A DNA stretch of 64,000 bases from Escherichia phage Andreotti. Under the pieces are notes generated by a model that had not been told where the DNA came from, did no database searches, and saw only the letters and a program-made list of their open reading frames with translations. Positions 49,802-53,859 of this stretch are shown one piece after another; the first letter of the stretch is position 1, and the number at the start of each line of letters is the position of its first letter. The translations under genes were made by a program, and so were the position numbers. The stretch lies in sequence record MN850610.1, one strand, 5' to 3'.

Positions 49802-50049
49802 GCATTAATCTTTAAAGACTCTCTTAGAAAGCCCTTAAAGATGCCCACCTTATTAATCATACCGTGGGCGAGTACGCCAAATTCTTTGATGAGGGATTGG
49901 AAGACCTCACTGGTGTTTAGCCTATCAAGCTACTGCCAGAAAAACATTGTCGTTTGCATTTATTTTAAATTTGCAAAATAGACGCTACGCAACGAAAACT
50001 AAGGGTACTATAAAGTAGTCACATCTCAATGTCAACAACTTTATTGAAT

Positions 50050-50124
50050 TTGGTTGTAGGTGAGGGTATCGAACCCTCTTCTAACGGTTATCAGCCGTTT
50101 GCATTACCATTTATGCTAACCCAC
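50050..50124 (-). tRNA. tRNA-Ile (anticodon GAU)
   Basis: T-arm GAGGG-TTCGATA-CCCTC; perfect 5-bp anticodon stem, loop CUGAUAA. Confidence 0.75.
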
Positions 50125-50283: not shown

Positions 50284-50293
50284 CATTAAATTA

Positions 50294-50440
50294 TCTTTGT
50301 AGATAAGCTACCCAGACTTGCTTAAGGTCTGTAGCGATGTGCCTTTATGGGTTTAAAATCTAGAATTTACCCTTTCACCCTTTGTGGTCGCATACTCACA
50401 GGTAAGCTTAATAACTTATCTACAAAGATAATTACCAGAC
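50294..50440 (-). repeat. structured non-coding element bounded by a perfect 17-bp inverted repeat
   Basis: TTATCTTTGTAGATAAG (50294-50310) and its exact reverse complement (50424-50440) enclose 113 nt containing nested inverted repeat GCTACCCAGAC / GTCTGTAGC. Confidence 0.6.
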
Positions 50441-50713
50441 CGTTATTTATCATCTTAAGTGCTACCATTACACCAACTCGACATCTGCCGAGTGAAGGAA
50501 TCGAACCTTCGCCTTTTCTTTACCGAGAAATAGATTGTTTAAGTTTTGCTGTAAACGGTCTTCTGTAAATTTGTTGAGCCAGACCAAGTTTTAAATTTTT
50601 CAAAATTGAATTGGCTTGAAATTTTAAGTAACTTGCTGAATTTGGTCTTCTGCTCCTTTAAAGGATACTCGTAAGAACCCTTTAAGGGAGGGGCTAAATA
50701 GCCCTCTCAAAAT

Positions 50714-50789
50714 TGGCGAGGTATGCGAGAATCGAACTCGCGGCTCAGGAGAGACAGTCCCGTATTTTGCCCATCTAAACTAATACCCC
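50714..50789 (-). tRNA. tRNA-Asp (anticodon GUC), tentative
   Basis: acceptor GGGGTAT/ATACCTC, T-arm GCGAG-TTCGATT-CTCGC; anticodon loop CUGUCUC has U at position 37. Confidence 0.55.
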
Positions 50790-50795
50790 AAAAAT

Positions 50796-51224
50796 CTATG
50801 TACCATTTCTTAGGTACTTCTCTTTACGCCTTGCTGGATTGTAGTGCTTGCGTCCTTCTGCGTTTTTAGCAAGTCTGCAAGGTTCACACCTACAACCTCT
50901 TCTATAACCAGACACTGTGCCATGTTTAATTGGTGTGTATTTCCTATCACCAATCTGGGCTGGCCTAGTTGCTTTTGAATTACATTGTATGTGGCTGTAA
51001 GATATATTGTCAAGTGAGAAGAAAAGCTCTTTTGCATTCTCTTCATGTCTCCAAGGAACTTTATGTTCTATAGAGAAATCAACTCTGGACATTTCTTTTC
51101 CACAATGGTGACACTTATTCTGTCCAGTTTTACAAACCAAATCAAAGAGTAAATCTTTAACAAGCCTGTTCTGGGCTGTTCCTAAGCTCATACCAAGTTG
51201 TGACTTGTAAACTTCATTCTTCAT
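50796..51224 (-). CDS. HNH endonuclease (putative homing endonuclease) inside tRNA array
   Basis: CHHCGKEMSRVDFSIEHKVPWRHEEN...H (HNH-type His/Asn spacing); C-terminal GYRRGCRCEPCR. Confidence 0.7.
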   Translation of the reverse strand: MKNEVYKSQLGMSLGTAQNRLVKDLLFDLVCKTGQNKCHHCGKEMSRVDFSIEHKVPWRHEENAKELFFSLDNISYSHIQCNSKATRPAQIGDRKYTPIKHGTVSGYRRGCRCEPCRLAKNAEGRKHYNPARRKEKYLRNGT

Positions 51225-51246
51225 AGTATCAACATCTTATTAAAAT

Positions 51247-51331
51247 TGGTGCGCCCATCTGGACTCGAACCAGAAACCTTGAAAGGGACAGTTTTACAGA
51301 CTGCTGCATTGACCATCTCTGCCATGAACGC
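51247..51331 (-). tRNA. tRNA-Tyr (anticodon GUA), class II
   Basis: 85 nt; T-arm TCTGG-TTCGAGT-CCAGA; anticodon loop CUGUAAA; hairpin variable arm; CCA encoded. Confidence 0.65.
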
Positions 51332-51341
51332 ATTTAAATTT

Positions 51342-51418
51342 TGGCGGTTAGTCAGGGATTCGAACCCTGTGCCATTCGCTTAACAGGCGACCGCACATAC
51401 CTTATGTGCTTCCTAACC
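51342..51418 (-). tRNA. tRNA-Asn (anticodon GUU)
   Basis: T-arm CAGGG-TTCGAAT-CCCTG; anticodon loop CUGUUAA. Confidence 0.65.
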
Positions 51419-51495
51419 TTAATACATTGCCAGACCGTGTTTTTTCTTTTATCCGCAAAAAGTATTTTGTTGCTGTAAACGGTCTTCTGTAAATT

Positions 51496-51571
51496 TGGAG
51501 GCGGGTGCAGGAGTCGAACCTGCCGATACCATGCTAATGAGACATGTGAGACGCCCTTTCTCTATACCCGC
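51496..51571 (-). tRNA. second CAU-anticodon tRNA (Met, or Ile2 via lysidine), irregular acceptor
   Basis: T-arm GCAGG-TTCGACT-CCTGC; anticodon loop CUCAUUA; acceptor pairs only with a 1-nt register shift. Confidence 0.45.
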
Positions 51572-51663
51572 AATTCTTAATGACCAGACCAAATCTCTTC
51601 TTTGTCCGATTTACCTTCAGATGAATAAGATTAAGTTTGCTGTAATTGGTCTTCTGTCAAAAC

Positions 51664-51990: not shown

Positions 51991-53406
51991 TTACCAGATA
52001 TAACGGTCAATCATTACTGCTTTGAGCATTACACTGATTGGGTCAAACTTCTCACCACCAAGCAGAGCTTTTAAAGTGGCTGGAGAGAACCCTGATACCA
52101 TTGCTACACCGTTATCCTTAACAGATACTTCGCAAGTACCATTACGGTTTGCTAAGTACCAGAATACCAGTTGTGGCATCTCATATCCAGCTTTTTTGTA
52201 CTTACTCTGAATTGCTTCAAAGTTTGTACGTCCGTTAGCTCCATCAACCTGATTGAACTCCATATCGGAGAAGATGATAAGCTTACTTGGCATATCTTTC
52301 TGAGTCAAGTTGTTTCTTTTACCTGTTTCAAGAATGCGGTCAAAAGCTGCTTGTAAGTTAGTTGAGCCATATTCAACGTGTCGCATCACCTGACGATGAC
52401 GGTTTCGTAAATCACCACTCAGTTCGATGAAGTGAGGGTTTGTTGAATAAACCATCAACTCATTCTTAAAGCAACCTGTATTGCGTTCTGCTACATACAA
52501 GGCAAGTGATACACCAATATCAAGAGCAGTAATGGAGCCAAAATTCACCCAAGACATTGAGCTTGAAACATCAGACATACATAGAATGTTTTCACCCTCT
52601 GCCATCCAGTTTGGTAGTGCTTTCCACTGCTCATTAGCAACATCTGCATTACCATACTTAACAGATTTAATCACATCGTATGGGTAAACAGCACCAGCGT
52701 TAATCTTAGTCTCACCTTTTGATAAGGACTCGATGTAAGCTTTGTAACGTTCCCCATCTTTACGGTTAAAGAGTTTTTGGTAACGTGCAGCAGCAAGTGA
52801 AGGAATCTTACTGTAGTCAATCTTACCAAACTCATTAGCAGAGATTTTTTGCTCAACTGTATCAGAGAGTGCAGACAACAGTGTGCGGTACTCTTTCTCA
52901 CTCAAGTTGGCAAATTTGCAGAAACGTTTTACAAACTGCTTGTGACGTGGTTTGACTCGTGGTAACCACTTAGCTGCCAAACCTGCTGTTGCAGGGTCTA
53001 GTAATGCTGCTTCTAAATGTTTGAAGGCATCTGTCTCGAAACGAGTACCTACGAAGATTTTGAAGTCATCAAAACGACCAAGTTCTGCAATCTTATCCAT
53101 AATGCGAAGAACCTGTGCAGGCTCTAAAACTTTGTCTTCAATCGCTTGAAGCAAAACAGTTCTGAAGGCTTTACGCTCACCCATACCTTCTCGTACATCT
53201 CGCATATGCAGTAAAATACGAACTGAAACATCAACATCCTCACGCAAAGCTTTGTAGAACAGGTCTGGTAAGATTTCTACATTGCTACGACTTGAACCAG
53301 CAGCTTTGTAAAAGTCTACAAGAGCAGACATTGATGAAGTATGGTTTACAGCACCATTTTCAGTTCGACCTGCATGAAGGTGCGCATGTTTAAATAACTC
53401 GCTCAT
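51991..53406 (-). CDS. von Willebrand factor A (vWA) domain protein with N-terminal helical domain (471 aa)
   Basis: MIDAS-type DxSxS motif in LCMSDVSSSM followed by alternating hydrophobic strands; about 250-aa helical N-terminal region; directly upstream of tRNA array. Confidence 0.6.
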   Translation of the reverse strand: MSELFKHAHLHAGRTENGAVNHTSSMSALVDFYKAAGSSRSNVEILPDLFYKALREDVDVSVRILLHMRDVREGMGERKAFRTVLLQAIEDKVLEPAQVLRIMDKIAELGRFDDFKIFVGTRFETDAFKHLEAALLDPATAGLAAKWLPRVKPRHKQFVKRFCKFANLSEKEYRTLLSALSDTVEQKISANEFGKIDYSKIPSLAAARYQKLFNRKDGERYKAYIESLSKGETKINAGAVYPYDVIKSVKYGNADVANEQWKALPNWMAEGENILCMSDVSSSMSWVNFGSITALDIGVSLALYVAERNTGCFKNELMVYSTNPHFIELSGDLRNRHRQVMRHVEYGSTNLQAAFDRILETGKRNNLTQKDMPSKLIIFSDMEFNQVDGANGRTNFEAIQSKYKKAGYEMPQLVFWYLANRNGTCEVSVKDNGVAMVSGFSPATLKALLGGEKFDPISVMLKAVMIDRYIW

Positions 53407-53487: not shown

Positions 53488-53859
53488 TTATTTTTTGAGG
53501 GTTGCAACAGCAGAGAACGTTGGTTTGTTATCTGTCTGAGACTGACCACCGTTATCAGGAGTCTTCTTAGTGTCTGCTGCAAGTGCTTTCATCTCACCTG
53601 CTGAGTGAGTAAAGATGGTTTTACCGACCTCAATCATGCTCTTGATGGTTACGTCATCTGTGTTTAACCCGAACTCTGCAAGCTTAGCAGCGTCCCTTGT
53701 AACAATCGCCTCAAACAACTTTGCAGCAAACTCAGCAGAATTATCAATGGTTAGTTGAGCTTTTACGAGTGAACTTTTGTTACGTGAGCCTTTCGGTCTT
53801 CCAGATGGGTTTCCAGACTGGCCTTTTTTAAACTGGCCTTTGTTTGTTCTGTTTTTCAT
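53488..53859 (-). CDS. hypothetical basic protein with N-terminal GNPSGRPKG motif (123 aa)
   Basis: N-terminus KKGQSGNPSGRPKGSRNK; Ala/Lys-rich. Confidence 0.5.
   Translation of the reverse strand: MKNRTNKGQFKKGQSGNPSGRPKGSRNKSSLVKAQLTIDNSAEFAAKLFEAIVTRDAAKLAEFGLNTDDVTIKSMIEVGKTIFTHSAGEMKALAADTKKTPDNGGQSQTDNKPTFSAVATLKK

Follow-up and report, generated by a model that had tools for sequence, protein, structure and literature searches.

Escherichia phage Andreotti carries four copies of a short recurrent motif inside its tRNA array. The window analysed here is a stretch of 64,000 nt from sequence record MN850610.1, and all positions refer to it. We find that each copy is the 5′ half of a hairpin-closed RNA unit of 66–137 nt, read on the minus strand like the tRNAs. 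These units are likely Y-RNA-like partners of a divergent Ro60-like protein and would constitute four small RNA genes embedded in the array. Three observations carry this assignment: the structure of the units, with covariation in their helices; their strand-specific linkage to the protein gene throughout the family; and the YrlA-type domain order of the longest unit. The Ro60 fold of the partner protein is predicted by structural modelling.

Four hairpin-closed RNA units in the tRNA array

The window comes from a Felix-O1-like phage, and 259 phage records match the region at 80–99% identity. ARAGORN places 25 tRNA genes on its minus strand, between 46551 and 51825. A preliminary description of the sequence had pointed to a recurrent motif within this array, and the recurrence is real. 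The string TTGCTGWAWWYGGTCTTCTG occurs four times on the plus strand, at 50546, 50633, 51470 and 51637, as compared to a mean of 0.04 and a maximum of one in shuffled sequence. The string GGTCTTCTG is found five times where 0.5 are expected, and four of the five are the motif copies. The coordinates first assigned to the copies are correct to within 1–8 nt, and the 24-nt consensus is exact in three of them, with the copy at 50633 deviating in the last five bases.

On the minus strand each copy reads xxAC-AGA-AGACC(NN)-UU(A)CAGCAA. A complementary partner, (NN)GGUCU-G-GUxx, follows 30–100 nt later (CCAGACC on the plus strand) and had previously gone unremarked. The two strands close every unit with the same layout. 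An outer 4-bp helix (UGAC/GUCA, UUAC/GUAA or GAGC/GCUC) is followed by a 3×1 internal loop (AGA/G), an inner helix of 7–8 bp (AGACCNN/NNGGUCU), the single-stranded element UU(A)CAGCAA and a variable interior. Minimum free energy (MFE) folds recover these closing helices in all four units. The units, the motif copies and the partner strands are listed below.

51581–51659, minus strand: unit 1, short and Y-RNA-like, 79 nt, between tRNA-Glu and tRNA-Met
51637–51659, minus strand: motif copy 4, the 5′ stem strands and UUACAGCAA of unit 1
51427–51492, minus strand: unit 2, short and Y-RNA-like, 66 nt, between tRNA-Met and tRNA-Asn
51470–51492, minus strand: motif copy 3, 5′ half of unit 2
50576–50655, minus strand: unit 3, short and Y-RNA-like, 80 nt
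50633–50655, minus strand: motif copy 2, 5′ half of unit 3
50432–50568, minus strand: unit 4, long and YrlA-like, 137 nt, defined by MFE and consensus folds
50546–50568, minus strand: motif copy 1, 5′ half of unit 4
51581–51592, 51427–51438, 50576–50587 and 50432–50444: partner strands, complementary to the motif copies

Unit 1 pairs UGAC with GUCA and AGACCAA with UUGGUCU on either side of the AGA/G loop and continues with UUACAGCAA. Unit 2 has UUAC/GCAA (one mismatch; GUAA in relatives), AGA/G, AGACCGU/ACGGUCU and again UUACAGCAA, while unit 3 has GAGC/GCUC (a G-U variant in phage Moogle), AGA/G, AGACCAA/UUGGUCU and AUUCAGCAA. In unit 4 the corresponding elements are UUAC/GUAA, AGA/G, AGACCGUU/AACGGUCU and UACAGCAA, after which a tRNA-like module begins.

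Whether the motif persists in homologous arrays had been named as a check, and it does. All four units are syntenic in Felix O1, Moogle, Sf18 and five metagenomic relatives, across two genera. Unit interiors are swapped wholesale among these phages (unit 1 occurs with two unrelated interiors) and the helices and core motif are kept. The helix changes seen in Moogle are G-U or compensatory (AGGCCAA/UUGGUCU, AGACUG/CGGUCU and GGAGC/GUUCC), which places the constraint at the level of RNA and not of DNA.

Two details of the preliminary description hold for only part of the set. Each copy was said to lie just 3′ of a tRNA or tRNA-like element. This is so for the copies at 51637–51659 and 51470–51492, which begin 4–5 nt past the 3′ ends of tRNA-Glu and tRNA-Met, but not for the other two: the copy at 50633–50655 lies ~58 nt past tRNA-Asp with two hairpins between, and the copy at 50546–50568 directly follows the preceding unit, its tRNA-like element standing 3′ of the copy and within the same RNA. 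Similarly, a pair of TTTACA strings 13 nt apart was reported for the reverse complement; the pair occurs only in copies 2 and 4, and its start-to-start spacing is 14 nt.

The units accompany a protein gene across phage and bacterial-assembly loci

The gene beside the array is the following.

51991–53406, minus strand: gene for a 471-aa protein of predicted Ro60 fold, the proposed partner of the units; directly upstream of the array, with the units 330–1560 nt downstream of it

Protein searches returned more than 2,400 homologues of the 471-aa protein. Locus scans covered at least 589 viral stretches and at least 453 stretches from bacterial assemblies, and 80 loci from each were analysed. The viral loci comprise five that are Felix-O1-like and 75 at ~40% protein identity; the bacterial loci, at 33–42% protein identity, were drawn from an independent genome-assembly collection.

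A motif census was run with a pattern consisting of a helix of at least 7 bp, 0–2 nt, U..CAGCAA, the complementary strand and CU-G. Of the strict units returned, 89 share the strand of the gene and 2 are on the other, whereas looser chance matches were symmetric (47 vs 43). In the window the census found precisely the four units and nothing more. The distant loci showed 46 distinct helices. All units lay outside the gene, the majority no more than 500 nt away on one side or the other. With its exact cores and perfect helices the census undercounts, and the 100% pairing in the alignment derived from it (A2) is circular. Because the census selects perfect helices, a covariance model, R1, was tested on loci outside its training set and on the independent collection. 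R1 was built from 22 short units of distant phages and contains no Felix-O1-like sequence.

In the 64-kb window the three best R1 matches are unit 2 (37.6 bits, E 1e-6), unit 1 (30.3 bits, E 7e-5) and unit 3 (29.4 bits, E 1e-4); the next match scores 16.4 bits, and unit 4 is too long for the model. Across the 75 distant viral loci, R1 gave 58 matches at E≤0.01, all 58 on the gene strand and spread over 43 loci; 37 of the 58 matches are not training sequences. The 80 bacterial-assembly loci gave 45 matches in 36 loci, again without exception on the gene strand, so that 103 of 103 matches in the two sets share the strand of the gene. Among the 50 non-training matches, pairing holds in 99.1% of cells, and each of the seven pairs shows changes on both of its sides. 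The covariation score is 1.02, whereas shuffles reach 0.31 and slid partners no more than 0.2. These 50 matches retain CAGCAA in 49–50 cases and the G after the helix in 48.

The motif thus consists of the 5′ strand of a terminal stem and an invariant single-stranded UU(A)CAGCAA, in RNA units that accompany a gene of predicted Ro60 fold. By analogy with Ro60 systems it is most likely the putative binding site of that protein on its own partner RNAs. Among the functions first suggested for the motif, a regulator-binding site comes closest to the evidence, although the binding would take place on RNA and not on DNA.

Several distant loci are dense in units. Four to seven tandem units, short and tRNA-like ones mixed, stand beside the Ro60-like gene in L076 (5385–6157 and 8483–8607), L066 (3523–3966) and L080 (3324–3941). 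L038 additionally holds four orphan T arms (ACAGGTTCGAATCCTGT) that are not called as tRNAs.

The neighbouring protein is predicted to be Ro60-like

The 471-aa protein matches Pfam DUF2828 and DUF7788 as well as PHROG 850 (‘RNA-binding protein’) and is ORF42 of Felix O1. An AlphaFold2 model computed with 52 homologues has a mean predicted local distance difference test (pLDDT) score of 89 and a predicted template modelling (pTM) score of 0.88. It shows a ring of HEAT-like helical repeats followed by a von Willebrand factor A (vWA) domain and matches Ro60 over its full length. When Foldseek was queried with the model, the top nine matches were all Ro60/TROVE structures. Residues D279, S281 and S283 are invariant in 52 of 52 homologues, and this DxSxS signature is read as a site of the MIDAS (metal-ion-dependent adhesion site) type. 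At the level of predicted fold, the DUF2828/DUF7788 protein therefore appears Ro60-like.

Unit 4 has the domain order of YrlA

Units 1–3 have no tRNA-like module and resemble YrlB. The interior of unit 4 is built differently. In its MFE fold a 5-bp stem and a variable-arm hairpin are followed by a canonical T arm (GAAGG-UUCGAUU-CCUUC), an acceptor hairpin, the dinucleotide UG and a D arm (GUGU-AAUGGUA-GCAC).

50459–50510, minus strand: core of the tRNA-like module of unit 4, from the MFE fold, the consensus fold and relatives
50494–50510, minus strand: T arm, GAAGGUUCGAUUCCUUC
50476–50493, minus strand: acceptor stem of 7 bp, closed by a 4-nt loop (ACUCGGC-AGAU-GUCGAGU)
50459–50473, minus strand: D arm, GUGUAAUGGUAGCAC, preceded by UG

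The variable arm thus comes first, followed by the T arm, the loop-closed acceptor stem and finally the D arm. Also present are a T loop (GGUUCGAUUCC), a D loop (AAUGGUA), U8 and the 7-bp acceptor stem. A T arm followed by an acceptor stem and then a D arm describes a tRNA whose opening is on the anticodon side and whose acceptor end is closed. A consensus fold of six relatives retains all arms in 36 pairs, and its acceptor stem is compensated at three positions: ACUCGGC/GUCGAGU in the window, ACCCUUC/GAAGGGU in Moogle and ACACG/CGUGU in Sf18. The Rfam tRNA model matches unit 4 partially, over the T arm and the 3′ acceptor strand (15 bits).

In bacterial YrlA RNAs the Ro60-binding stem takes the place of the anticodon arm, and the YrlA of Mycobacterium smegmatis has a 7-bp acceptor stem that makes it a substrate of RNase P and of CCA addition (PMC4201824). 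In several relatives the loop that closes the acceptor stem encodes a discriminator base and CCA: GCCA in Moogle (L001, 2720–2745) and ACCA in L076 (5860–5885) and L047 (5480–5500). By analogy, this suggests that RNase P cleavage in such N-CCA loops could leave a tRNA-like CCA end.

A circularly permuted tRNA gene of the Cyanidioschyzon type was considered for unit 4. The order of the halves is permuted as in such genes, but the termini form a plain helix with a 3×1 internal loop. A permuted or split tRNA was rejected for the unit: no bulge-helix-bulge (BHB) motif is present, no 7-nt anticodon loop is restored, and the YrlA layout explains the order of the arms.

Weighing the assignment against its alternatives

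A number of results weigh against Y-RNA-like partners of a Ro60-like protein. The closing helices are short (4 plus 7–8 bp), and single-sequence folding z-scores are weak, from −0.3 to −1.6. The pairing percentages lean towards structure, A2 having been selected for perfect helices and a further alignment (A5) fitted to the model; the strand bias and the proximity to the gene are independent of this lean. The census shows a unit in only about half of the distant loci, and R1 does so in 43 of 75 viral and 36 of 80 bacterial ones. The Ro60-binding motif, GNCGAAN0-1G or CGAA (GGUCCGA in animals), is absent from the units. Unit 4 of the window has no Rfam YrlA match even at E≤10, and no unit reaches the gathering score of any Rfam 15 family in searches of the array, unit 4 and 15 related loci, where only tRNAs pass threshold. 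On the protein side, sequence similarity to Ro60 is not significant and the Pfam families are DUF2828 and DUF7788, not TROVE. Phmmer and profile searches of the Protein Data Bank (PDB) likewise gave nothing significant (Ro60 at E 0.61, over the vWA part only), and an NCBIfam search gave no match, so the proposed relationship to Ro60 derives from predicted structure. Finally, the release of the units from the tRNA transcript and their binding by the protein are suggested by position and by analogy.

The best-surviving alternative, though in our judgement an unlikely one, is that the units are cis-acting operators or untranslated region (UTR) elements, which would be bound on the long transcript and autoregulate the mRNA of the protein or the tRNA array and would not exist as free RNAs. 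The bacterial-assembly loci are arranged as a 5′-UTR operator would be: 43 of the 45 R1 matches lie a short way upstream of the gene, and the median distance to the start codon is ~110 nt. The units in the window, however, lie 330–1560 nt downstream of the gene, past promoter-like sites and behind tRNAs that need excision. Viral units are found both upstream (32) and downstream (28) of the gene, often as 2–6 copies in tandem, and some contain complete tRNA-like modules that match YrlA. Known Ro60 partners, moreover, are free RNAs encoded beside the gene (PMC4201824).

Somewhat less probable still is that the RNAs act without the protein, for example as decoys that mimic tRNA, or as sponges, for host nucleases that target tRNAs or for RNase P or polynucleotide phosphorylase (PNPase), the linkage being mere co-inheritance in one module. 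The 7-bp acceptor stem of unit 4, an RNase P determinant in M. smegmatis YrlA (PMC4201824), would suit such a role, as would the N-CCA in the acceptor loops of several relatives and the tRNA genes that stand beside the gene in ~30 of the 80 viral loci. The stem, CAGCAA and the following G are nonetheless present in every unit, and the tRNA-like module only in a minority. Linkage that holds at ~35–40% protein identity, with 103 of 103 matches on the gene strand, also argues for a functional pair.

The remaining alternatives fare worse. RNA-processing punctuation of the tRNA array, for instance as a site for RNase E or RNase III or as a spacer structure that aids tRNA maturation, had been among the original proposals, and all four copies do lie within the array, two of them 4–5 nt past a tRNA 3′ end. 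We regard it as very unlikely: the motif adjoins homologous protein genes in many tRNA-free loci (among them L012, L014, L020, L036 in its upstream region, and L066), and most of the 25 tRNAs in the window have no motif. Helices of 11–12 bp are also too short for a classical RNase III site. A DNA-level signal, either an internal sigma-70-type promoter or the site of a DNA-binding regulator, is highly improbable. Unit 1 contains TTGACA, and unit 2, alone among the four copies, passes a lax sigma-70 scan (TTTACA-18-CAAAAT, 9/12 matches); the region as a whole, though, has 7 promoter-like sites as compared to 6.8 in shuffles, and the copies share no conserved −10 element. What is conserved (CAGCAA, a helix that covaries freely, G-U wobbles) is characteristic of RNA and not of −35 or −10 boxes, leaving the promoter suggested earlier unsupported; conservation tracks base-pairing, G-U pairs included, and is strictly strand-specific. 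Equally improbable are functionless remnants, that is, decayed or circularly permuted tRNA genes or repeats with inverted termini resembling miniature inverted-repeat transposable elements (MITEs), for although unit 4 has a tRNA 3′ half ahead of a 5′ half and the stem strands resemble imperfect inverted repeats, positions are syntenic across two genera, helices covary and do not decay, neither a BHB motif nor, on circularisation, a 7-nt anticodon loop is found, and three units have no tRNA part. A kink-turn, an RNase III site and MITE inverted repeats were also dropped, on helix geometry, helix length and covariation.

A proposed mechanism and its significance

Two promoter-like sites lie between the protein gene and tRNA-Pro.

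51972–51944 and 51881–51852, minus strand: two sigma-70-like sites with 10/12 consensus matches each, the likely start of the tRNA/unit transcript

We propose that the array is transcribed from these sites, just downstream of the Ro60-like gene, with units and tRNAs on one RNA. RNase P and the tRNA 3′-end nucleases would excise the flanking tRNAs and thereby free the units. The ring of the Ro60-like protein would then bind the stem and the CAGCAA element, as its linkage to the units and the Ro60–Y RNA analogy suggest. The resulting ribonucleoprotein, of Ro60/Y-RNA type, may act on structured or damaged RNAs during infection, with tRNAs as the obvious candidates. The tRNA-like module of unit 4 could possibly recruit tRNA-handling enzymes or host PNPase; such recruitment has precedents in bacterial and Thermus-phage Ro60 systems (PMC4201824, PMC12135203). 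The occurrence of tRNA genes beside the gene in ~30 of the 80 viral loci makes tRNA metabolism, or host defence directed at tRNAs, an obvious place to look.

Ro60–Y RNA systems are already known, including ones in phages. As judged by Rfam 15 and the literature searched, what is new is the placement of DUF2828/DUF7788 proteins in a system of this type, a distinct RNA element, and four RNA genes in the Felix O1 array. Literature searches on DUF2828, on permuted phage tRNAs, on the motif string and on Felix O1 together with Ro60 or Y RNA found nothing relevant. Felix O1 is a classical phage for typing Salmonella, and relatives of it serve in biocontrol. If our assignment is true, Felix O1 gains four unannotated RNA genes and a function for a gene annotated as ‘RNA-binding protein’, and Ro60/Y-RNA-type systems gain a large second branch. 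Its RNA recognition element, unlike CGAA, would offer a natural comparison for how Ro60-like rings read RNA. The frequent siting beside or inside tRNA clusters would point to quality control of tRNA and structured RNA, or to the countering of host defences directed at tRNAs.

Other elements in and near the array

The array contains further features of interest. Between unit 4 and tRNA-Lys (50285–50436, minus strand) lies a structured element of ~150 nt with a closing stem of ~25 bp, an MFE of −47.9 kcal/mol and a z-score of −5.7. Felix O1, Moogle and Sf18 all retain it, with seven pairs changed on both sides. It has no Rfam match and may be another small RNA of the array. Two hairpins, GAGAGGGCUAUUUAGCCCCUC and CCUUUAAAGG...CCUUUAAAGG-like, stand between tRNA-Asp and unit 3 (50660–50712, minus strand) and are kept in Moogle; having no U tract, they are not classical terminators.

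Units 1 and 2 flank the tRNA-Met (CAU) gene at 51496–51572 (minus strand). All others of the 25 tRNAs match the Rfam tRNA model at E≤1 and this one does not; the region of its D arm also appears atypical. A tRNA-Met stands directly ahead of the tRNA-like unit in the distant locus L009 as well. Sub-threshold Rfam matches to transfer-messenger RNA (tmRNA; 15.9 bits, E 0.003) and permuted tmRNA (30.8 bits, E 0.002) fall at 49804–50108 (minus strand), in or beside the 247-nt gap between tRNA-Arg and tRNA-Ile and partly over tRNA-Ile. They may be only tRNA-like noise.

Two protein-coding features complete the region. A 142-aa open reading frame (ORF) lies inside the array (50796–51224, minus strand). 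Its annotation in relatives is HNH homing endonuclease, but it has no Pfam match in the window. Only some relatives have it, and many records match only 63% of a 1.6-kb query. The ORF is probably a mobile insertion, with tRNA-Tyr and tRNA-Asp on either side. Next to the Ro60-like gene, directly upstream at 53488–53859 (minus strand), is a DUF5681 gene of 123 aa. The two genes are adjacent in Felix O1 as well, and Moogle and Sf18 have an ORF in the corresponding place.

Comparison with known systems

The closest known systems are the YrlA family (RF02553) and phiRo60-Yrl1/2 of the Thermus phage phiLo (PMC12135203). Ro60 genes with adjoining Y RNAs on the same strand, some of these with tRNA-like modules, occur in bacteria and in some phages (PMC4201824; PMC12135203). 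As in YrlA/YrlB–Ro60 loci, where small RNAs lie on the same strand within a few hundred nt to ~2 kb of the gene and often in several copies, the units of the window stand at 330–1560 nt, within 4 kb and on the same strand as a gene whose product has a predicted Ro60-like fold. All four units pair their 5′ and 3′ ends through a stem with an internal loop, as do YrlA and YrlB. In loci of the YrlA type, one RNA often carries the module of variable arm, T arm, closed acceptor stem and D arm and the others, YrlB-like, do not; the same division is seen here, and the acceptor stem of unit 4 is 7 bp long, like that of the M. smegmatis YrlA cleaved by RNase P. Long units of distant loci match RF02553 over its whole length with E from ~1e-6 to 1e-2 (38.9 bits, E 3e-6, for L076 8497–8612; 39.2, 28.7, 26.7 and 25.2 bits for others), all below the gathering score of 69. 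In these alignments of relatives the tRNA-like part aligns well and the outer stem, the GNCGAA site in YrlA, mismatches. A shared YrlA body plan combined with a different protein-proximal element fits a divergent Ro60-like protein.

The two also differ. The protein-proximal element here is helix–NUN-CAGCAA … helix′-G and not GNCGAAN0-1G or CGAA, the protein belongs to DUF2828/DUF7788 and not to Pfam TROVE, and the units are interleaved with tRNA genes in a phage tRNA array. This last feature recalls species 1 and 2 of phage T4 (rnaC and rnaD), small stable RNAs that are co-transcribed with, and excised from, a phage tRNA cluster. The likeness is one of general description, and no Ro60-like partner is known for the T4 RNAs.

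A second resemblance leads to eukaryotes. Class I RNAs of Dictyostelium (RF01414) measure ~60 nt, have a short terminal stem with the 11-nt element CCUUACAGCAA beside its 5′ strand, and end in ...CUG (PMC7919456). Like the short phage units, they are ~55–65 nt long, with a terminal stem of 6–7 bp that connects the two ends, 5′ and 3′, as well as a conserved single-stranded (C)CUUACAGCAA directly 3′ of the 5′ stem strand. Both also have a variable A/U-rich loop, an A-rich run ahead of the 3′ strand and a 3′ end in ...C-U-G. The near-invariant Class I positions U3, C6, C9, A10 and A11 (PMC7919456) are those that the phage units retain. For some short units, unit 2 of the window among them, no Rfam family scores higher than RF01414 (23.9–30.7 bits); scores across units range from 13.6 to 30.7 bits, all below the gathering score of 41.5. 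Conversely, a sequence hidden Markov model of the phage units finds 18 of 22 D. discoideum Class I RNAs at 4–12.7 bits, the best of 440 shuffles scoring 2.9. DdR-66 and DdR-67 begin GGGCUUCUUACAGCAA, and the phage unit of L045 begins AGGCUUCUUACAGCAA.

The two groups differ in that the spacing from helix to CAGCAA is one nt longer in most Dictyostelium members than in the phage units. Class I RNAs are eukaryotic, have their own Dictyostelium upstream sequence element (DUSE) promoters and are reported to be unique to Dictyostelia, and their only demonstrated direct binder is the RNA recognition motif (RRM) protein Rnp1A/CIBP (PMC7919456); the phage units, in contrast, sit in the context of a tRNA array and not behind DUSE promoters. 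Outgroup Class I candidates of Kjellin et al. are too few and too weak for use. We take the likeness of the phage units to Class I RNAs as a resemblance, short of family membership. A single family, in which stem, UUACAGCAA and 3′ CUG form the ligand of DUF2828-type Ro60-like proteins, is a tentative and rather doubtful proposition, drawn from resemblance at the level of motifs. If it were true, Class I RNAs, which are abundant and developmentally regulated, would be analogues of Y RNAs, and DDB_G0281243 would be the prime candidate for a Ro60-like partner. The DUF2828 family is present in eukaryotes too. DDB_G0281243 is uncharacterised and is one of four proteins pulled down with DdR-21, a Class I RNA (bioRxiv 10.1101/2020.04.05.026054); the supplements of Kjellin et al. 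(PMC7919456) mention neither it nor DUF2828. Class I RNA has been without a mechanism for twenty years, and the resemblance offers a cheap and direct way to test one.

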